DNA from: an uncultured Chloroflexia bacterium
GTDB lineage: Bacteria; Chloroflexota; Limnocylindria; Limnocylindrales; CSP1-4
Length of the DNA stretch: 64,000 nt
Assembly: GCA_963789905.1 (NCBI GenBank)
Contig: CAWBMK010000007.1
Coordinates: forward strand, 780 to 64,779
Reading direction: 5' to 3'
The position numbers were made by a program, and so were the translations under genes. Shown here one piece after another: positions 34,968 through 64,000 of this stretch; within the stretch, counting starts at the first letter, position 1, and the number at the start of each line of letters is the position of its first letter. Under the pieces are notes generated by a model that did not search any database, was not told the origin of the DNA, and was given only the letters and a program-made list of their open reading frames with translations.

Positions 34968-35627
34968 TCAGGCGGCGGGCGTCTCCCCGGTGGCGTAGCG
35001 GTAGATCGCCCAGCCGATCACGGCTCCGACGATCGGCCCGACGATGTAGACCCACAGCGAAGTGAGGTCGCCTCCGACGACCGCCGAGGCGATCGATCGA
35101 GCCGGGTTCACCGACGAGCCGGTGAACGGGACGATCGCGAAGTGGATGACCATAAGGGTCAGCGGGATCGCGAATGCGGCCTGGGTCGGCGCCTTCTTCG
35201 TCGAGACCAGGATCACGAGGATGAAGAACGCCGTGAAGATCGCCTCGATGACGACCGCTTTGATGTCGTCGATCCCATTCCCCGGCAGGGTTCTGGTACT
35301 CGCAACCGCCGCCTGATCGAACAACGCGAGGACGACCGCGGCGGCAGCGATACCGCCGATGAGCTGCGAGGCGACATAGCCCACGCCGGTCATCGCGTCG
35401 AGCCGCTTGTCGATGACCGCCGCGACCGTGACAGCGGGATTGAAGTGGCCGCCCGAGACCGCGCCGAAGATCTGGATCGCGACGAAGAGGCCCAACCCGA
35501 ACCCGAAGGCGATGACGACGAGGTTCCCTTCCGGTGAGAACACCGTCTCCGACAGGATCGCCATGAATCCGATGAGGAAGAAGGTGAATGTGCCGACGAG
35601 CTCGGCCAGCAGCTTCTTGGTGTCCAT
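34968..35627 (-). CDS. MIP family aquaporin (AqpZ-like)
   Basis: SGGHFNPAVT and SVNPARS motifs. Confidence 0.95.
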   Translation of the reverse strand: MDTKKLLAELVGTFTFFLIGFMAILSETVFSPEGNLVVIAFGFGLGLFVAIQIFGAVSGGHFNPAVTVAAVIDKRLDAMTGVGYVASQLIGGIAAAAVVLALFDQAAVASTRTLPGNGIDDIKAVVIEAIFTAFFILVILVSTKKAPTQAAFAIPLTLMVIHFAIVPFTGSSVNPARSIASAVVGGDLTSLWVYIVGPIVGAVIGWAIYRYATGETPAA

Positions 35628-35878
35628 GGTCAGCTCCTCCTCCGAGTCCCTCACGCGGGCGCCGCGTGTCAGCCCGCGAATCAGTCTAACGGCGTGCCCG
35701 AGGTCGGACCGACTCAATGCTCGCCATCGACGGTGAGCGTATTCAGGTCAGGCGGAGCGTCGGCGACGCGTACCATCGCTTCCCACCCCGTCGATCTCGG
35801 ATCCCCGCTCGATGGGGCCGAGGGTGTCAACTCGTTCAGGGTTCCGGGAACGGATCTTCGTAGCTTCGGAGTCACCTC

Positions 35879-36139
35879 ATGACCGGGCAATTCAAGGGCA
35901 CGATCAATGTCGACATTCGAGACTCGGCGCCCGACTGGTCGCCCTTCGAGCCCCTCAAGGCTCCCGAAGGAGCGCCGAACGTCGTGTACATCGTCCTCGA
36001 CGACGTGGGTTTCAGTGCCATGAGTTCTTATGGCGGCCCGATCGACACGCCCAACATCGACCGGATCGCCGTCGACGTGAGCGGCGAGCCCTATGTCGAC
36101 CTCGAGCGCGAGGCCGTCGCCATGCTGATGCGAGAATAG
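35879..36139 (+). pseudogene. Arylsulfatase with large in-frame internal deletion (N- and C-termini only)
   Basis: FKGTINVDIRDSAPDW..APNVVYIVLDDVGF..GGPIDTPNIDRIA joined to VDVSGEPYVDLEREAVAMLMRE. Confidence 0.75.
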
Positions 36140-55858: not shown

Positions 55859-56320
55859 ATGATTGCTACCCCCAGCCACGACACCCAACCCCATGGGCGA
55901 CGGCGCCGACTGCGCGGCGGACGGGGCCAATCGCTCGTCGAGTTCGCGGTCGTGTTTCCGGTCTTCATCCTCCTGCTCGCGGGGATGGTCGACTTCGGCC
56001 TTGGCCTTTACGCGAACGTCACGATCATCAACGCCGCACGGGAAGGAGCCCGACTCGGCGTGACGCTCCAGCCGATGAACACGTCGGCGATCGATACGCG
56101 GGTCCGTTCAATGGCGACCGGCCTCGACCAGGCCCAGCTGGGCGTCACCTCGACCTGCCTTCGCCCGTCCGGCTCGACGTTCGTCGCCTGCACCTCACCG
56201 TCGTGGGTGGCCGGGGACTCCGTCAAGGTCAATGTCACTTACCACTACTCGATGGTCTGGCCCCTCGCGTTCGGCACTCAGCTCGATCTCGCGTCGGCCG
56301 TCCAGATGAGGATCGAATGA
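55859..56320 (+). CDS. TadE/TadG-like pseudopilin (copy 1)
   Basis: RGQSLVEFAVVFP prepilin motif, AAREGAR. Confidence 0.9.
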   Translation: MIATPSHDTQPHGRRRRLRGGRGQSLVEFAVVFPVFILLLAGMVDFGLGLYANVTIINAAREGARLGVTLQPMNTSAIDTRVRSMATGLDQAQLGVTSTCLRPSGSTFVACTSPSWVAGDSVKVNVTYHYSMVWPLAFGTQLDLASAVQMRIE

Positions 56321-57741
56321 ACACGCCGGTCGCGCGGCACAAGGTGGTTGAAAGGGACCAGATGATGCAGTCGCGCAGCGGCGGCGATAGCGCCCCGGAC
56401 CGCAAGGGCGAGCGAGGTCAAATCCTCGTCCTCTTCACCCTCGTGATCGTCCTGATCATGGGCCTCGTTGCCCTCGTCGTGGACGTTGGGGTTCTCAGAG
56501 GCGCAAGCCAGAACCTCTGGAACGCCCTCGATGCGGGTGCCCTCGCCGGCGCCTCGCAGTTGCCGGCCGACGGCGTTGCGGCAGACGCCATGGCCAACCA
56601 GTTCCTCCAGACGAACTATCCGAATGGTGTTCCACCCGGCAACGTCTCAACGACCTTCCGCTGTCTCATCGGGAGCAACAGCGGCTCACCGCGGCTCAGC
56701 GACGTCCCAACCGTCTGCGACCCCGGGGCGGGAGCGACATGGACGTGCAACAGCAGCATCTGCGTGGCCATGTGTGTGCCGACCTCGGGCGACACCTGCA
56801 ACACGATCGTCCTCACCGGCAACGTCACGGTGCCCTATGGTTTCGGCCCCGCCATAGGTGTCAACAACGGAGACACCGGTCCCGTGACGTCCGCAGCCTG
56901 CAAGGGACCATGCGGGGCGCCACCGGAGAACCCCGTCGACATCGCCCTCATCGTCGACCGGACGTCGAGCATGAGCGGCGTCGATACGACCAACGCCCGG
57001 AATGCCTCTCAATCTGTCCGCGGGATGCTCGATCCGGCATTCCAGTGGCTGTCCTATTCGATGCTCGGCCCGAGCAACATTGGCGCCTGCAAGACCACGC
57101 CGGCGAGCACGATCGGCACCGCCGTCGCGCCGGCTGATCTCCCGCGCTGGGTGCCGATCGGCCTGACCGGACTCCAGTGGCATGGCCAGAATCCGCACGT
57201 GACGCAGGACTTCACGAGCGGCTCGAGCGCGATGCAGAACGCGATCGCGTGCTACACGAACTCGAGCACCGGAACTGACCTCCGGGATCCGATCCCGATG
57301 GCCACGTACGAGCTCAACACCTACGGTCGGCCGGGGGTGCCGAAAGGCATCATCCTCATGACCGACGGTCAGCCGAACGCCTCGACGATCAACCCCGGTG
57401 GCAGCAACTACTGCAACCAGGCCAACAACGTGGCCACGACCGCCAAGAACGTCGACAAGATCGAGATCTTCACGGTCGCCTTCGGGCTCGATGGCTCCAA
57501 CGACATCGACTGTCCGGACACGACCGGGTTCTGGTCGACCCAGAAGGCATCGGATCTCGTCGCCAGCATGGCAACGAGTTCCGACAACGACCTCCCCTGC
57601 GGCGACCCCGAGAACAACGACGACACCGACCACTACTTCTGCGTTCCCAAGACGGCCGGCGCCTCAGCCGACCTCACGAACGCGTTCAAGAAGGCGACCG
57701 CCGCGTTGGTCGCCGGTACCAGGCTTATCCAGCTGCCCTAG
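56317..57741 (+). CDS. TadG-like protein with vWA domain (copy 1)
   Basis: RGQILVLF, DAGALAGA, DIALIVDRTSSMS MIDAS, ILMTDGQPN; Cys-rich. Confidence 0.85.
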   Translation: MNTPVARHKVVERDQMMQSRSGGDSAPDRKGERGQILVLFTLVIVLIMGLVALVVDVGVLRGASQNLWNALDAGALAGASQLPADGVAADAMANQFLQTNYPNGVPPGNVSTTFRCLIGSNSGSPRLSDVPTVCDPGAGATWTCNSSICVAMCVPTSGDTCNTIVLTGNVTVPYGFGPAIGVNNGDTGPVTSAACKGPCGAPPENPVDIALIVDRTSSMSGVDTTNARNASQSVRGMLDPAFQWLSYSMLGPSNIGACKTTPASTIGTAVAPADLPRWVPIGLTGLQWHGQNPHVTQDFTSGSSAMQNAIACYTNSSTGTDLRDPIPMATYELNTYGRPGVPKGIILMTDGQPNASTINPGGSNYCNQANNVATTAKNVDKIEIFTVAFGLDGSNDIDCPDTTGFWSTQKASDLVASMATSSDNDLPCGDPENNDDTDHYFCVPKTAGASADLTNAFKKATAALVAGTRLIQLP

Positions 57742-57791: not shown

Positions 57792-58010
57792 TGTCCGCTG
57801 TGCCGGCAGGGTCGTGGCCGGACGCTCGATTCTGACGGAGGTCCTACCCTGTCGGGACCACTGGCGTGGCCGATCGAGCCCGAAGATCGCCAATACGCAA
57901 CATTGCAAGTTGTCCTGCAATGTTGGCATTAGTACTATCGTCGCCCTTCTCCGGTCAGCCGTGTGGCCGGCCTATTCGACGCTGTTGCACCCTGGAGTCA
58001 CGCGACGGAG

Positions 58011-58460
58011 ATGAGCGCTTCCTTTCCCTTTGAGATCAGACGCCGCGGGCGGCGCCGACTGCGCGGCGGACGGGGCCAATCGCTCGTCGAGTTCGCGGTC
58101 GTCTTTCCGGTCTTCATCCTCCTGCTCGCGGGGATGGTCGACTTCGGCCTTGGCCTCTACGCGAACGTCACCATCATCAACGCGGCTCGCGAAGGCGCCC
58201 GCCTCGGCGTGACCCTCCAACCCTGGGATCAGACGAAGGTCGTGCAGCGCGTCAATGACATGTCGACGGGGCTCGATCTGACAAAGCTGACAGTCACCCC
58301 GACCTGTCTGAAGCCCGGAGGCGCATCGGTCGCATGCGGCTCAGCGGTTGGGGGCGACACAGTCAAGGTGCACGTCACCTACCACTACTCGATGGTATGG
58401 CCCCTAGCGTTCGGCACCCAGCTCGATCTCGCGTCGGAAGTCCAAATGAGGATCGAATGA
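58011..58460 (+). CDS. TadE-like pseudopilin (copy 2)
   Basis: Near-identical N-terminal half to copy 1. Confidence 0.9.
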   Translation: MSASFPFEIRRRGRRRLRGGRGQSLVEFAVVFPVFILLLAGMVDFGLGLYANVTIINAAREGARLGVTLQPWDQTKVVQRVNDMSTGLDLTKLTVTPTCLKPGGASVACGSAVGGDTVKVHVTYHYSMVWPLAFGTQLDLASEVQMRIE

Positions 58461-59916
58461 ACCCGCCGGTCGCCGGCGCAAGGTGGTTGAAAGGGACCCG
58501 ACGATGCCTTCTCGAGACCGGGAGGGCGAGCGAGGTCAGATCCTCGTCCTCTTCACCCTTGTGATCGTCCTCATCATGGGCCTCGTGGCCCTCGTCGTCG
58601 ACGTTGGCGTCCTGAGAGGCGCCAGCCAGAACCTGTGGAACGCCCTCGATGCGGGCGCCCTCGCCGGGGCATCGCAGCTGCCGGCCGACGCGACGAACGC
58701 CGACACCATGGCCACCACTTCATCTCAGACGAACTACCCAGGCGGCGATCCCCCGAGCAACATCACGGTGAGCTTCCGATGCGTTATTGGCAGCGACGGC
58801 CAGGTGGTGCCCCACGAACGTCGGACATACCGTAGCGTCTGCGATCCGGGCTCTAACGTGACCTGGAGATCAGAGCGCATCTGCGTCGGCTCTATCTGCG
58901 CTGAGATATGCGTGCCTTCCGAGGGCGACATCTGCAACACGATCGTCCTGTCCGGCGGATGTTACGGTGCCCTACGGGTTCGGCCCCGCCATCGGAGTCA
59001 ACTCTGGCAACACTGGCCCCGTTACCTCTGCGGCCTGCAGGGGACCTTGCGGGTCGCCTCCGGACAGCCCGATCGATATCGTCATGGTCATCGACCGGAC
59101 GTCGAGCATGTCTGGCGCCGACACGACCAACGCGAAGAATGCCGCCCAGGCGGCGCGCCGGATCCTGGATCCCACCCAGCAATGGCTCGCACTCGCGATG
59201 CTCGGCCCGACCAACACAGCGGCCTCGGGGTGCGCACACGCAGCCCCTGCCCCCGCCGGCTCCGGGCGCGACAGCCAACATCCCGGCCGATGTCAACAAG
59301 TGGGTCCCGATCGGCCTGACGGGCTTCACCTGGAAGTTCCGGAATCCGACGGTCTCGGGCGATTACACGAAGTCGGGAGCGGCTGGGAGCGGCATGGCCG
59401 AAGCCATCTCGTGCTACCCGAACTCGAGTACGAACACCGATCTCCGCGACCCGATGCTGATGGCGACGCACGTCCTCCAAACGAGTCCGCGCTTCGCACC
59501 GGCCGTCGCCAAGGGCATCATCTTCATGACCGACGGCGAACCGAACATCTCGACGATCTCCGGCAACACGAACTACTGCGACCAGGCGGCCACGGCCGGG
59601 GATGACGCGAAGGCCGTCGGGATCGAGGTCTTCACGATCGGCTTCGGCCTCGATGATGGCTCCCTCGATTGCCCCGATCCGTCCCTGCCTTGGCGCAACC
59701 AGCCTGCTTCGCGGCTGTTGGCGGACATGGCCACCCACGTTGCGGGCGACCCAGCCCGGCTCGACGATCTGCGCCTGCGGCGACCCGGAGAACGGCGATG
59801 GCGATCACTTCTACTGCGTCCCCAAGACGTCAGGAACCTCGCCCGACCTCACGAACGCATTCAAGTCGGCCATCAACCAGCTCGTCGGAGGGACGAAGCT
59901 TATCCAGCTGCCCTAG
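58457..59916 (+). CDS. TadG-like vWA protein (copy 2), about four frameshifts
   Basis: Collinear with copy 1 across frames; DRTSSMS, FMTDGEPN, ends GTKLIQLP. Confidence 0.75.
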
Positions 59917-59932
59917 CGGCTCCTCCGCGATC

Positions 59933-59961
59933 GGACGCCCGCCCCATCGGGGCGGGCGTCC
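59933..59961. terminator. Intrinsic terminator between convergent tadG-like and arsC-fusion genes
   Basis: GGACGCCCGCCCC-ATC-GGGGCGGGCGTCC. Confidence 0.75.
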
Positions 59962-59971
59962 CCTGCTTTGT

Positions 59972-60814
59972 TCAGTCGGCGAGTATCGAGCGGGGGACTC
60001 GGCCGGCCGCTCGTAGCGCCACCTCGACGAACGGTCGCAGCCGCTGCGCCAGCTCGGTCGCAGTGCTACGAAAAGCTGTGAGCTTCTCGGCGTCCCTACC
60101 CTCCACCTCGGCCGGGTCGTCAAGACCCCAGTGGAGGGAGTTGTAGTCCCCTGGAAAGACCGGGCAAACCTGTCGGGCGCGATCGCAAACGGTGATGACG
60201 TAGTCCCACTCCTGATCGGTGAACTCGTCGACCGACTTGCTCCGGGCATCGGACCAGTCGATGCCGCGCTCGCCCAGCGCTCGGATCGTGTACGGGTTCA
60301 CGGCCTTGGGATGGCTACCGGCAGATGCGACCTCGAAGGCCCCACCGCCGAACTGCCTCAGCAGGGCCTCGGCGATCTGGCTACGTGCAGAGTTGCCGGT
60401 GCAGACGAAGAGCACCCGGATCGGTGCGTCGGACATGGCATGGTTCTCCTTGATCGCCCGGAAGCGACCTGCGGCGTCGATCGTCGTTTCGAGATCGACG
60501 AGCTCGCTCTCGAGCCGATCGAGATCGGCTCGCTGACGATCGATGGCAGCCCGCTGTTGGGCGATGAGGGGCGCCAGATCGGCATCGATCTCGCGCCGGT
60601 CGATACACAGGCGCGCCAGCCGCCCGGCGTCCTGCGGACCGAGGCCAAGCCGTCGCAGGCTGAGCACGATCCGCAGTGTTGCCAGATCGCCGTCGTCGTA
60701 GTCGCGGTAGCCGTTCTCTCGTCTCGCAGGCGGCGGCAGGATGCCGACCGATTCATACCAGCGGACGGCCGACGCTGCGACGCCAGCTCTCGCAGCCACC
60801 TCGGAAACCTTCAT
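59972..60814 (-). CDS. MerR-family HTH fused in frame to ArsC/LMW-PTP domain
   Basis: MKVSEVAARAGVAASAVRWYESVGILPPPARRENGYRDY, coiled coil, then VLFVCTGNSARSQIAEA, VITVCD..CPVFPG, WGLDDP. Confidence 0.88.
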   Translation of the reverse strand: MKVSEVAARAGVAASAVRWYESVGILPPPARRENGYRDYDDGDLATLRIVLSLRRLGLGPQDAGRLARLCIDRREIDADLAPLIAQQRAAIDRQRADLDRLESELVDLETTIDAAGRFRAIKENHAMSDAPIRVLFVCTGNSARSQIAEALLRQFGGGAFEVASAGSHPKAVNPYTIRALGERGIDWSDARSKSVDEFTDQEWDYVITVCDRARQVCPVFPGDYNSLHWGLDDPAEVEGRDAEKLTAFRSTATELAQRLRPFVEVALRAAGRVPRSILAD

Positions 60815-60820
60815 AGAGCG

Positions 60821-60851
60821 AAGGTACATCTTCAAGTGACTTGAAGGTCAA
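60821..60851 (-). promoter_or_regulatory. MerR-type promoter TTGACC-N19-TACCTT with dyad CTTCAAGT-N-ACTTGAAG (60830-60846)
   Basis: 19-bp spacer, perfect 8-bp inverted repeat, ATG 6 nt after the -10 element. Confidence 0.85.
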
Positions 60852-60929
60852 GAGGCTTGTGACGCACGGACCCCAACCGCGGGTATCCCGGCCCTGTGCT
60901 ATCGGGTGGCGGCGAACGATGCTGCACGC

Positions 60930-61436
60930 ATGAAGAAGCGTGTACTTGTCGCCTATGCGACCAAACATGGTGCGACCCGGGAGATAGCGGACCGGATCGC
61001 CGAAGAATTGCGCGAATCTGGGCTCGTCGTGTCGATCGCAGAGGTGCGAGAGGCTCCGAGTCTCGAGCAGTATGACGCCGTCGTTCTGGGCAGCGCCCTC
61101 TACGCCGGTCGCTGGCGAGGCGAGGCCGTTCACTTCGTGAAGCGCCATCGGGCGCAGCTGGCGACGCGTCCGTTGTGGCTGTTCAGCAGTGGGCCTCTCG
61201 GCGAGCGGGAGGATCCCTCGGACATCGAGATGACGCAGCCAGTCGCCAAGGTGACGGCCGGGCTAAATCCCGTCGATCACGAGACGTTCGGCGGTGCGCT
61301 CCAGACGGGCACGCCGGGGTTCGTCGAGGGGTTGATGCTTCGCCGCATGGAAGGCGATTTCCGGGATTGGGACCACGTCCGCGACTGGGCTCGCGCGATC
61401 GCCGCGGATCTCGCCACGGAGGTCCCTGTCGGCTGA
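60930..61436 (+). CDS. Flavodoxin-domain protein (HemG-like)
   Basis: LVAYATKHGATREIA, VVLGSALY, WLFSSGP, GDFRDWD. Confidence 0.85.
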   Translation: MKKRVLVAYATKHGATREIADRIAEELRESGLVVSIAEVREAPSLEQYDAVVLGSALYAGRWRGEAVHFVKRHRAQLATRPLWLFSSGPLGEREDPSDIEMTQPVAKVTAGLNPVDHETFGGALQTGTPGFVEGLMLRRMEGDFRDWDHVRDWARAIAADLATEVPVG

Positions 61437-61471
61437 CGCAGCGACGGGCCGGTCGGGCGTAGCATCAGTTC

Positions 61472-61966
61472 GTGACCCGGTTGGCGGATGGACTCGACGT
61501 CGACGGACCGGTCCAGGCCGAGGTGTTCGTCGTCTGGCTCGCGGGCGACCATCTCGAGCTGACGGGTCCGTGTGGCCCGGCGCCCTGGATCATCGAGATC
61601 CGCGAGGCGGAACACCCGGTGGAGGTCGTCGAGCGGATCGTTCGGGATGTCATCGGCGACCCACTGCTCATCCATTCCACATCGTGGCGCCGTGATCGCG
61701 ACGCGGTCATCCTGAGCTTCGTCGTGGTCATCGACCCCGCCCGTGTCGGCGACATGAAGTCCGCTCCGATCGGACGAGCGGAGTTGGCTCGGGGCGAGGC
61801 GACCGCGGCGCCCCACTCGATCGCCCAGGCGCAGGTGGTCGAGCATGGCCTTCGTCATATGGCCTGGCTCGTGCGAGACGACCCCGTCGTCCGAGCCGAG
61901 CTGCCGGTGGGTTGGTGGTCGGCACTCGAGGCCTACGTGGCCGAGCCGTTCCGCAACCTGGGATAG
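61472..61966 (+). CDS. Hypothetical protein, possibly degenerate NUDIX-like fold
   Basis: GC3-consistent ORF; no canonical NUDIX box. Confidence 0.6.
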   Translation: MTRLADGLDVDGPVQAEVFVVWLAGDHLELTGPCGPAPWIIEIREAEHPVEVVERIVRDVIGDPLLIHSTSWRRDRDAVILSFVVVIDPARVGDMKSAPIGRAELARGEATAAPHSIAQAQVVEHGLRHMAWLVRDDPVVRAELPVGWWSALEAYVAEPFRNLG

Positions 61967-61980
61967 CAATGGAGGACAAG

Positions 61981-62170
61981 ATGGGCGTCGATCTGGTCAC
62001 CGTCCGGTGTGTCTGCGGCTGGCAGACTCAGGGAACCGAGGACGAGGTTGTTCCGGCGACACAGGAACACGGCCGCCGCGTCCACAACATGGAGGCGACG
62101 CGGGAGGAGGTCCTCGCGATGGCCGTCCAGGCGAGGTCGCGATCGAGCCCTGACCTCGGACCGGACTCGG
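61981..62170 (+). CDS. DUF1059-like small metal-binding protein; stop uncertain (ORF runs into neighbour)
   Basis: GGAGG RBS; RCVCGW..TEDEVV..QEHGRRVHNM..TREEVLAM. Confidence 0.65.
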
Positions 62171-62171
62171 G

Positions 62172-64000
62172 TCAGGGTTCGGAAGGCGCAGCCTCCGAGA
62201 TCGGCGGTGGCAGTCCGCTGGGGACGGTCCCGTTGGCCGGCGCGAGGGTCGGCACGATACGGAGCGCGCCTTCGGGATCCGATGCGAAGGCAGCCAGGAC
62301 CGTACGCCACGTCGTCGCCACGACGCCAAGTAGCGGCACGACGATGAGCATGCCGGTGATCCCGGCCACAGCCGCGCCCGCCGGGATCGAGAGGAGGACG
62401 ATCGCCGGGTGGAGGTTGACGGCCTTGCCGTAGACCAGCGGGGCCACGAAGTTGCCCTGGACGATGTTGAAGACCAGGGTGAAGATCACCATCACCGCGA
62501 TCTGAGTCGGCGAGCCGACGGCGATGGTCACGAGCAACGCGATGCCCGTCGTGATCAGGCTCCCGATGTAGGGGACGAAGCCGCCGAAGAATGACAGCAC
62601 CGCGAGAGGCAGGGCGAGCGGGATGCCGAGCACGAACATGATGAGCAGCTGCGTCGCTGCCCCGAACGCCGAGATGGCGGCCGTCCCGATCATGTAGCCG
62701 CTCAGGACACCGCTCGCCTGTGTGCCGGCGACATCGATATCCGCCCGAGGTCCCTTCGGCAGCCGACTGAGTGCCCAGCTCCAGATCTGCCCACCATCGC
62801 GCAGGAAGAAGAAACAGAGCAGTGCCGTGAGCACCATCCCGATGAGCAAGCTCATGACGCCTGCGAGTGCAGCCGTGGCGGCACCGGTTATCGCCCCGCT
62901 GAACGAGCCGGCAACTCCCCCCAGCCAGTCGAGGCTCGTGCCCCCGACGATCGAGCTCGCGCCACCTATTGCCGCGGCGGCGATCTCGCTCGACTGGCGG
63001 ATCAGGGACTCGATCGACAGCCACATGATGAGGGCCACCCCACCGAACGTCGCCCCGGTCGTGAGCCCGGCCGCGATGGTTCGGCTCTGACCGCGGCGCA
63101 GGAGCGCCGAAACGGCCGGCGCGAGGGTGGCCGCGACGAACGTTCCGAAGAGGGCCGGGATGAAGAGGATGGGCACGCTTGAGATCGCAGCGATCGCCAG
63201 GCCGGCGATGGCGAACGCGACGAGCAGGCGCCAGCTCCATTGGGCAACGCGATCGAGCCAGCCCGGCACGAGCGTGTCCCGCTGCTCGGCCGGTCCCGGA
63301 TCGAGTGCGGATATGACAGCTCCGTTCACGGCCACGAACATCGCCACGATCGGGATGACGATGAACACGCCGGCAAGCCCGCAAGGGAGGCGCCGATGGG
63401 CAGGGCAACAAGAACCAGGGCCGGGTGGATGCTGGCGTTCCGGCCGGCCGTCATCGGGCTGAGGAACCTCGCTTGGACCACCTTGACGGCAACGATGAGC
63501 CCGACGAGGGCAACGACCGCAGTCACCCCGCTCGCGGCCCAGGTCGCGATCACGAGGACACCCGCCGCGATGATCGGCCCGAAGTACGGGATGAACCCGA
63601 GCATGAACACGAGGACGGCGAGCGGCCCGGCGAGAGGTACGCCGAGGAGGACGAGGAAGACCAGGTCCGACAGGGAGTCGATGCTCGCGACGATCGCGGC
63701 GCCCCTGAAGTAACGACCGACCCGGCCAAGTGCATCCCTGCCCGCCGCGGTGAGCTCGCCGCGCTTTTCGGCCGGCGCGACTCCGATCGCCCAGGCCCAG
63801 GCCTTGTCGCCGTCGAGAAGGAGGAAGAACGTCGTGAACAGCGACAGGATCGCGATCGAGAACGCGTTGGCGATCGAGCCGACGATCGCCCCGCCCGTCG
63901 CTGATATCGACGACTTGATTTGGGCAGTTGTCTGCGCGAGGGCATCCGATGACGCGGGCGGCACTCCGGCCCTGGCCAGTTCCTCGCGCACCTTGTCGAG
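62172..64000 (-). CDS. AI-2E family transporter with two tandem domains, frameshift ~63375, 5' end outside window
   Basis: Two PerM-like units (FIPYFGP..SIHPALVL and FVPYIGS..NLHPAIVL). Confidence 0.8.
   Translation of the reverse strand, partial: RQGARGTGQGRSAARVIGCPRADNCPNQVVDISDGRGDRRLDRQRVLDRDPVAVHDVLPPSRRRQGLGLGDRSRAGRKARRAHRGGQGCTWPGRSLLQGRRDRREHRLPVGPGLPRPPRRTSRRAARRPRVHARVHPVLRADHRGGCPRDRDLGRERGDCGRCPRRAHRCRQGGPSEVPQPDDGRPERQHPPGPGSCCPAHRRLPCGLAGVFIVIPIVAMFVAVNGAVISALDPGPAEQRDTLVPGWLDRVAQWSWRLLVAFAIAGLAIAAISSVPILFIPALFGTFVAATLAPAVSALLRRGQSRTIAAGLTTGATFGGVALIMWLSIESLIRQSSEIAAAAIGGASSIVGGTSLDWLGGVAGSFSGAITGAATAALAGVMSLLIGMVLTALLCFFFLRDGGQIWSWALSRLPKGPRADIDVAGTQASGVLSGYMIGTAAISAFGAATQLLIMFVLGIPLALPLAVLSFFGGFVPYIGSLITTGIALLVTIAVGSPTQIAVMVIFTLVFNIVQGNFVAPLVYGKAVNLHPAIVLLSIPAGAAVAGITGMLIVVPLLGVVATTWRTVLAAFASDPEGALRIVPTLAPANGTVPSGLPPPISEAAPSEP

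Follow-up and report, generated by a model that had tools for sequence, protein, structure and literature searches.

How might a cell tie the expression of its arsenic genes to arsenate itself? To our knowledge, nearly all known arsenic regulators are repressors of the ArsR/SmtB family that see arsenite, As(III), and sense arsenate, As(V), only once it has been reduced. A gene in the 64,000-nucleotide (nt) stretch analysed here (contig CAWBMK010000007.1 of an uncultured Chloroflexia bacterium from soil; hereafter the window) raises this question: it joins a MerR-type regulator in frame to a thioredoxin-type arsenate reductase, ArsC, and lies behind a MerR-type promoter that points into the gene itself. 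We favour, with a probability of roughly 0.55, the reading that this MerR-ArsC gene encodes an arsenic-responsive, self-activating MerR regulator whose effector and sensor domain is a complete thioredoxin-type ArsC. The link to arsenic comes from relatives, which usually lie in arsenic islands beside arsR and arsM and of which about a third have acr3 or an aquaglyceroporin gene downstream in the same operon; the inducer species and the switching mechanism are what we infer. If true, a MerR-type activator with an ArsC sensor would be a second, independent solution to arsenic sensing, and a clear case of the catalytic cycle of an enzyme acting as a regulatory signal.

A MerR module joined in frame to ArsC

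The open reading frame (ORF) of the fusion runs on the minus strand from an ATG at 60814-60812 to a TGA at 59974-59972. The ORF listing had chosen a TTG at 60835 as start. We rejected it because it lies inside the operator described below; conservation among homologues begins at MKVSE, and the ATG at 60814 is hence taken as the true start. The gene is made up as follows (amino acids, aa; helix-turn-helix, HTH; predicted local distance difference test, pLDDT):

59972..60814, minus strand: MerR-ArsC coding sequence, long product of 280 aa (ORF and translation, Pfam, relatives)
60488..60814, minus strand: MerR winged HTH with the first part of the long, putative dimerisation helix, residues 1-109 (CueR-like profile and structure matches)
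60416..60487, minus strand: end of the long helix and variable linker with the internal ribosome-binding site and start, residues 110-133 (low pLDDT, sequence varies among relatives)
60029..60415, minus strand: thioredoxin-type arsenate reductase of the LMWPc fold, residues 134-262 (profile, PDB and Foldseek matches)

Pfam recognised MerR_1 at residues 1-66 (53.3 bits, cut-off 21.6) and MerR at residues 3-39 (48.6 bits, cut-off 28.2); MerR-DNA-bind, at residues 44-108, scored 20.1 bits, under its cut-off of 25.4. The best NCBIfam match of the regulator was CueR (TIGR02044), again at residues 1-109, and the CueR structures 1q05/4wls of the PDB matched the same residues (E 2e-13). A structure model of the fusion (an AlphaFold2 monomer built from 44 homologues, mean pLDDT 86.7) gave helices at residues 3-10, 14-22, 41-55, 60-72 and 76-123, the last being a single long helix that follows the HTH. 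Foldseek aligned CueR to this model with a template modelling score (TM-score) of 0.68, and found the PDB to hold no full-length analogue. The match covers positions 1-109 of the 127 in the CueR profile, and no cysteine is present between residues 71 and 137. Judged by these matches, the MerR part has a CueR-like DNA-binding and putative dimerisation module, and ArsC takes the place of the usual C-terminal metal loop. Identity with CueR itself was rejected on the score of the profile (67.9 bits, against a cut-off of 147.4) and on the missing metal loop. The linker that follows is modelled with a pLDDT of 62-67 (low confidence at residues 124-131) against ~95 in the ArsC domain.

The second domain matched Pfam LMWPc at residues 134-262 with 69.4 bits, over the cut-off. 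Its catalytic residues C138 (60403-60401), R144 (60385-60383), C210 (60187-60185), C217 (60166-60164) and D233 (60118-60116) align with C10, R16, C82, C89 and D105 of the pI258 and Bacillus subtilis ArsC. The P-loop C138-TGNSA-R144, C210, C217 and D233 are invariant or nearly invariant in relatives, and the triad of cysteines is present in 229 out of 233. The closest PDB entries were 8p5n (Deinococcus indicus ArsC2, 9e-35) and 1jl3 (B. subtilis ArsC, 5e-26), and the ArsC of D. indicus, B. subtilis and pI258 ranked first in Foldseek, with target-normalised TM-scores of 0.90-0.95. The best NCBIfam match of the enzyme, arsC_pI258_fam (TIGR02691), reached 118.9 bits, under its equivalog cut-off of 174.3. 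By sequence, the domain is thus a divergent member, and the name ArsC rests on its residues, its fold and its gene neighbours. A low-molecular-weight protein tyrosine phosphatase (LMW-PTP; Wzb, PtpA, YwlE) was rejected as its identity: Foldseek TM-scores to these phosphatases were 0.65-0.75, below those of the ArsC structures, and NCBIfam phosphatase models matched with E values of 1e-3 to 1e-2 vs 1.6e-34 for ArsC.

A first-pass annotation of this DNA had described a MerR HTH and coiled coil running into a C-x5-R domain with two downstream cysteines, and had left arsenate and phosphotyrosine side by side as possible links. Pfam, the residues above and more than 230 relatives of the same architecture bear out the description. 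The two links part ways: arsenate gains from the arsenic genes of relatives, and phosphotyrosine loses ground, the domain being far nearer to ArsC than to LMW-PTP.

The fusion recurs in more than 230 relatives

More than 230 distinct full-length relatives (274-289 aa) share the MerR + LMWPc architecture. The best 120 database relatives, 67-75% identical, all show it (277-297 aa), and databases name them only 'MerR family transcriptional regulator' or 'arsenate reductase'. The fusion is encoded at 36 loci of species-representative genomes, nearly all labelled Chloroflexota; the source labels read 'Candidatus Limnocylindrales' or 'Chloroflexia', from soil, fen and peat, with one Tepidiformales. 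In the Chloroflexota of soil, peat and wetland (Limnocylindria) the family is abundant. The exact window protein, looked up among contig records, was not found there. Relatives of the gene are transcribed: wetland metatranscriptome contigs of 90-95% identity cover a homologue, with 5' ends that cannot be placed from the contigs. Our literature searches found no published study of a MerR-ArsC fusion. Few members of the Limnocylindria are cultured and, should the arsenic reading hold, the family probably shapes arsenic cycling in their soils.

Since the source is a metagenome-assembled genome, a lost stop or a frameshift could have merged two genes during assembly, and three of the loci (L025, L036 and L040) do carry frameshifts. 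The remaining loci are in frame. Reads at the domain junction were sought and no public run with this genome was found, the best one containing 12% of the sampled words, and the lost-stop question was addressed through homologues in place of reads. Looking for MerR + LMWPc architectures, and for a stop between the domains in relatives, had been suggested in the first-pass annotation, and this yielded many fusions and not a single linker stop codon in any intact relative. As more than 230 distinct proteins show the same in-frame architecture, and stem from assemblies that are numerous, independent and made on many sequencing platforms, we hold the artefact to be refuted by the homologues and give it a negligible probability.

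A MerR-type promoter points into the fusion gene

Directly upstream of the start codon we read the following elements:

60846..60851, minus strand: -35 hexamer TTGACC (read directly; TTGAC[CAT] at the same place in 36/40 loci)
60830..60846, no single strand: operator dyad CTTCAAGT-C-ACTTGAAG in the 19-nt spacer (family consensus ACCTTCAAGT-N-ACTTGAAGGT)
60821..60826, minus strand: -10 hexamer TACCTT, 19 nt past the -35 and 6 nt before the ATG (family consensus TAnnnT)
60812..60814, minus strand: start codon of the long product, predicted 5' end of a leaderless mRNA (-10 spacing)

The arms of the dyad, CTTCAAGT at 60830-60837 and ACTTGAAG at 60839-60846 (8+8 nt), are 100% complementary and separated by a 1-nt gap. 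We compared the upstream DNA of 40 relatives' loci, 36 of which fit the pattern TTGAC[CAT]-19 nt-TAnnn[TA]-5 to 7 nt-ATG/GTG; DNA further upstream is not conserved. The arms change together: for instance, L019 carries CGAG/CTCG, L016 GC/GC, and the distant L035 ACTTTGCAG/CTGCAAAGT. Such symmetric, compensatory changes are as expected of an operator bound by a dimer. When the 24-nt operator pattern was searched with up to 3 mismatches, a single site appeared in the 64 kb, reported on both strands because it is a palindrome, and none in 100 shuffles. Relatives have one box per locus, always at the fusion promoter. The 19-bp spacer and perfect dyad facing the fusion, pointed out in the first-pass annotation, thus recur throughout the family. 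A standard sigma-70 scan, covering spacers of 16-18 nt, found no promoter at the fusion start, and its miss is explained by that range and fits a MerR-type promoter. Taken together, the sequence bears the MerR hallmark of a dyad operator inside a 19-nt spacer, and putatively binds MerR. Promoter and regulator together are compact, and could be used as a biosensor part specific for As(V) if the arsenic reading is true.

The same layout is found in PcopA of Escherichia coli, which reads TTGACC-ttccccttgctggaaggtt-TAACCT and shares with the window promoter its -35, its 19-nt spacer and the outer half-sites ACCTTC...GAAGGT. They differ in the inner operator bases, which are AAGT-N-ACTT in the fusion, and in the regulated gene, which here is the regulator itself. 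The same box also precedes short Cys-rich heavy-metal MerRs in metagenomes, from which we conclude that the DNA-binding module of the fusion derives from the heavy-metal MerR clade. Some further, unrelated contigs of gut metagenomes (L109, L148, L155 and others) carry the exact operator pattern upstream of proteins starting ...IIIDEEFK.LLP.LD, where a similar palindrome probably has an unrelated function.

The -10 lies only 6-7 nt from the start codon, and from this spacing the mRNA of the long form is predicted to be leaderless, as already proposed for the window copy. The distance is kept in 36 of the 40 loci, and also where the promoter drives a metallophosphoesterase-like gene. In the window, only the fusion gene fits a leaderless promoter pattern, and a single match allows no inference on general leaderless use in this genome. 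A separate arrangement is seen at L026. Next to the promoter, ~23 nt ahead of the annotated start, there is a mini-ORF of 7 codons (MRVALFQ) whose TGA overlaps the fusion ATG, and translation of the fusion would here depend on coupling instead of a leaderless start. In four metagenome loci (L089, L114, L123 and L161) the same promoter, at the same leaderless distance, drives a 241-aa gene that we liken to the calcineurin-like metallophosphoesterases of our neighbour census, a class given by resemblance rather than by Pfam scan. The fusion follows this gene in L123 and L161, and none lies within 5 kb of it in L089.

Other candidates in the window were discarded. A relaxed half-site pattern matched 7 times against 4.9 expected by chance, and a second operator was rejected on these grounds; the half-site match at 35952-35970, near the aquaglyceroporin gene, lies in coding sequence and is not a dyad. 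An Rfam scan of 59000-62000 returned nothing meaningful.

Relatives of the fusion usually lie among arsenic genes

We surveyed neighbours at 39 genome loci, using genes filtered by GC content at third codon positions (GC3), a Pfam census and a tblastn panel. An arsM-like methyltransferase gene and arsR sit just upstream of the fusion in ~17 of these 39. In about a third of relatives the next gene in the operon is either acr3 (directly downstream on the same strand in L015, L018, L020, L021, L022, L029 and L082) or an aquaglyceroporin gene (likewise in L003, L008 and L026). The junctions of the fusion with acr3 or with the aquaglyceroporin gene (MIP family) overlap or measure 10-37 nt, with an AAGGAGA Shine-Dalgarno (SD) sequence, and these genes therefore appear to form operons. 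Common convergent neighbours downstream are arsR2-arsP-thioredoxin and telA. Scanning metagenomes with the operator pattern added ~45 fusion loci with the same arsenic neighbourhood pattern, and at L165 a second ArsC comes first behind the same promoter, ahead of the fusion and, last, an aquaglyceroporin gene. At another metagenome locus (L132) a 28-aa remnant of the C-terminal tail of the fusion lies between the promoter and an aquaglyceroporin gene, which looks like a deletion that took regulator and enzyme and left the promoter.

The first-pass annotation had pointed to the usual control of arsenic operons by ArsR. The fusion does not stand in for ArsR, as many relatives have arsR directly upstream. 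At L004 a metatranscriptome contig (3700-4225, run X9) reaches from the end of arsR across the intergenic promoter into the beginning of the fusion, which suggests read-through from an ArsR-controlled promoter, with DNA carry-over being possible. From the many adjacent arsR genes and this bridging contig, it follows that the fusion gene should also be readable from an ArsR-controlled promoter.

The proximity of arsR gives room to an alternative in which the protein senses thiol or disulfide stress, through Cys70 or through arsenic-free oxidation of the ArsC cysteines, with ArsC as co-expressed cargo and arsenic induction left to ArsR. Cys70 (codon 60607-60605) is nearly invariant in the main family, and the window copy lies outside an arsenic island, with a flavodoxin-like redox protein encoded by its divergent neighbour; arsR adjoining the fusion at many loci, and the contig bridging both, fit as well. 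Yet the promoter is still kept where Phe (in L009) or Tyr (in an offshoot without cysteines) takes the place of Cys70. The genes behind the promoter are arsenic-specific (acr3, aquaglyceroporin, second ArsC), and the flavodoxin gene (Flavodoxin_5, 60930-61436) is absent from all 39 related loci, so that we rejected it as a conserved partner. Moreover, a fusion is superfluous for co-expression where an internal start already yields a separate enzyme. We therefore regard thiol-stress sensing as unlikely.

An internal start predicts a free ArsC

A second start lies within the linker, as the first-pass annotation had noticed from the AAGGAG before MSDAPIRV, which it placed near 60440. Its exact position is the in-frame ATG at 60436-60434, encoding Met127:

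60446..60451, minus strand: internal SD sequence AAGGAG, 9 nt before the in-frame ATG
59972..60436, minus strand: predicted short product, a free ArsC of 154 aa from Met127 to the shared stop (conserved SD and start)

Both elements are conserved. At 32 of 35 loci the PIRVLFVC strand has an ATG or GTG 5-7 codons ahead of it, preceded in relatives by GGAG, GAGG or AGGA 6-10 nt upstream. Of 233 fusion proteins, 150 have Met at the start position, 74 have Val and 9 have another residue. The residues encoded at the internal SD differ (KD, RT, EV, ED, KE, QE, EE and others). The mean energy of the duplex with the anti-SD is -8.2 kcal/mol at the internal site vs -2.55 elsewhere in the same genes, with a median rank of 8/263. 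SD use in these genomes is also seen at the aquaglyceroporin gene of the window and at acr3 of relatives. Met127 is three residues off the N-terminus of the stand-alone ArsC2 structure 8p5n. From these features we conclude that, as far as sequence can tell, the mRNA of the long form should also yield a free ArsC of 154 aa.

The variants lacking this start are informative. Internal Met/Val is absent in 4/4 variants without the triad (P0121, P0126, P0122 and P0271) vs 5/229 with it, and L027, L031 and L032, which have no internal start, each have a separate ArsC gene adjoining. The second ArsC found beside the fusion at five loci (L014, L027, L031, L032 and L165) is ~230 aa long and bears an N-terminal 'phosphatase-like N' domain (Cg_ArsC1'-like).

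One could also see in the internal start a relic. The protein would then be a plain autorepressor, blind to any ligand, and the SD and ATG would be left over from a formerly separate arsC, and the alignment of Met127 with the N-terminus of stand-alone ArsC is indeed what a merger of adjacent genes would give. However, the SD and the start persist among proteins that are 53-75% identical while nearby linker residues diverge, and they are lost precisely in variants without the triad or where a separate ArsC adjoins. The 19-nt spacer kept in 36/40 loci is, in addition, the geometry of MerR-family activators. A ligand-blind relic seems to us quite improbable.

A proposed switch driven by ArsC turnover

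How would arsenate turn such a promoter on? We propose that the dimer on the dyad keeps the over-spaced promoter in a poor conformation. Cys138 of the fused P-loop would attack arsenate, and Cys138-Cys210 and Cys210-Cys217 disulfides would then form, a type of cascade known for the pI258 and B. subtilis ArsC. The arsenylated or oxidised ArsC domain, its loop rearranged, would repack on the coiled coil and on the DNA-binding domain of the partner, untwisting the spacer and switching transcription on, until thioredoxin reduces the domain and resets the switch. The leaderless mRNA would give little long form, and the SD-led internal start far more free ArsC for bulk reduction; by using up arsenate, free ArsC would add negative feedback atop positive autoregulation, as TipAS does for TipAL. 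Where ArsR is adjacent, it would handle As(III) and organoarsenicals, and the fusion regulator the As(V) reduction-and-export branch.

In this form, the fusion would give the MerR family its first sensor of a metalloid oxyanion. Turnover of the fused ArsC, through its arseno-cysteine adduct and thioredoxin-reset disulfides, would be the allosteric signal that untwists the 19-bp spacer, As(V) would be sensed directly and read as a flux against thiol-reducing capacity, and the short isoform would tune the response. We advance this specific mechanism tentatively, at clearly less than even odds.

A neighbouring possibility is that the product, not the substrate, is captured: the fused ArsC would make As(III) locally, which would be held by ArsC thiolates with or without Cys70 of the partner chain, and the complex would activate. 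In a MerR dimer, as CueR structures show, each chain has its C-terminal effector site beside the hinge of its partner; there are also four conserved cysteines per chain. The same logic has been proposed for natural ArsR-ArsC fusions, of which the one from Paracoccus, where ArsC is coupled to an ArsR domain that senses As(III), is reported to improve the detection of As(V) (Chem Rev 2024, PMC11672702). Against capture, the MerR module lacks a Cys-rich As(III) site, and the known cycle of ArsC releases As(III) as the first disulfide forms, so that free thiolates are not jointly available. We deem capture of As(III) improbable.

A small offshoot of the family bears on the role of the fused domain. 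In P0122, P0271 and P0272 the P-loop is replaced by VLF[AV]SNFNAARGP and C210 is lost, and P0122 also lacks C217. In the DNA of P0271 and P0272 (L085-L087) C70 has become Tyr, and the promoter is kept as TTGAC[CA]-19 nt-TATACC-6/7 nt-GTG. Neither has arsenic genes as neighbours: P0271 is flanked by TauE, DUF1634 and Na_Ca_ex, and P0272 by peptide ABC-transporter genes. Promoter and fused domain being kept without the cysteines, the domain must be retained there for a role other than arsenate reduction, which argues for the ArsC-fold domain as the sensor module of the regulator. The offshoot may be a pseudo-enzyme sensor for another anion.

Several observations weigh against an arsenic-responsive, self-activating regulator. 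The window copy has no acr3, arsB or other arsenic gene in the 4 kb scanned on each side, in agreement with the first-pass annotation, which had seen no acr3 or arsB next to it; its neighbours are the flavodoxin gene and a TadG/vWA gene, and the gene with its promoter is the only conserved feature there. Given possible read-through from ArsR-controlled promoters, arsenic induction may do without the MerR module. Only one cysteine of the MerR part, C70, is conserved, and no As(III) site is evident. The operator belongs to a class common to ordinary heavy-metal MerRs, and there may be cross-talk with another MerR. The predicted TM-score (pTM) of the AlphaFold2 model is 0.58, which makes its inter-domain geometry low-confidence. 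Finally, no experiment on any family member was found in the literature.

Comparison with known regulators and reductases

The closest parallel in gene organisation is tipA of Streptomyces lividans, which is activated from its own MerR-type promoter. TipA and AlbA (the latter from Klebsiella) resemble the fusion in the order of their domains: a MerR HTH at the N-terminus, a coiled coil, which is predicted in the fusion, and an effector domain at the C-terminus. Each has two in-frame products, the effector alone arising from an internal start, as predicted for the fusion. TipAL/TipAS and AlbAL/AlbAS are thus MerR genes that yield a long regulator and a short effector domain (PMC6078987), and activation of the AlbA gene from its own MerR-type promoter is described in a bioRxiv preprint. 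In both systems the short form takes up most of the toxic ligand, the role in which we cast the short product of the fusion. The differences lie in the effector, which here is an enzyme of the ArsC/LMWPc fold without sequence or fold relation to the drug-binding domain of the TipAS type; in the ligand, which would be an oxyanion handled by covalent thiol chemistry; and in the predicted leaderless mRNA of the long form. The sole match to TipA was in the HTH region (2vz4, query residues 3-62). The gene therefore appears to work like tipA and albA, yet stands outside that family, since the effector fold is unrelated. If true, it adds another, unrelated case of two products from one gene, with leaderless and SD-led starts on one mRNA.

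CueR remains the closest match of the DNA-binding and putative dimerisation module. Its Cys-x7-Cys metal-binding loop, with Cys112 and Cys120, is absent from the fusion, where linker and ArsC stand in its place. Thioredoxin-coupled ArsC enzymes (Staphylococcus aureus pI258, B. subtilis and D. indicus ArsC2) share with the second domain the fold, the CX5R P-loop, the two downstream cysteines and the aspartate, and match the predicted 154-aa short product in size and N-terminus. They differ from it in the P-loop (CTGNSARS in the fusion vs CTGNSCRS), in a conserved C-terminal extension of ~15 residues in the fusion, and in that the fused domain is joined to a transcription factor and scores under the equivalog cut-off.

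The ArsR-ArsC fusion of Paracoccus sp. (ArsRC) also ties As(V) processing to gene control by joining a transcription factor to an arsenate reductase domain (PMC11672702). It belongs to the ArsR/SmtB repressor family and follows a logic of derepression, unlike the MerR fusion. We rejected the identity of our protein as an ArsR-ArsC fusion, as it has no Pfam HTH_5 match; one of the distant matches (P0129) does combine LMWPc with an ArsR-like HTH.

Other features of the window

Downstream of the fusion the window contains a candidate terminator:

59933..59961, no strand assigned: 13-bp GC-rich hairpin between the fusion and the convergent vWA gene, likely terminator (T-tract on the plus strand only)

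This hairpin suggests that the window copy is monocistronic. Far from it, at 34968-35717 on the minus strand, lies the aquaglyceroporin (MIP) gene of the window, whose product is 37% identical to those encoded behind the fusion in relatives. Its ribosome-binding site, GGAGGAGGAG, is strong, and the DNA upstream of it shows no MerR-type operator.

The convergent gene belongs to two tandem TadG-like genes (Tad + vWA) on the plus strand, at 56203-57741 and 58483-59916, each with a TadE-like gene before it (57963-58460). The first is intact and encodes 512 aa. The second is split over the frames 58483-59319, 58967-59605 and 59602-59916, and is either a pseudogene or the product of assembly frameshifts. 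On the other side, 61472-61966 (plus strand) encodes a 164-aa protein with no Pfam or NCBIfam match, whose gene does not accompany the fusion elsewhere. An ORF on the minus strand at 63326-63991 resembles a second AI-2E transporter copy by sequence rather than by profile, and the gene at 62172-63368, also on the minus strand, matches the AI-2E transporter family.

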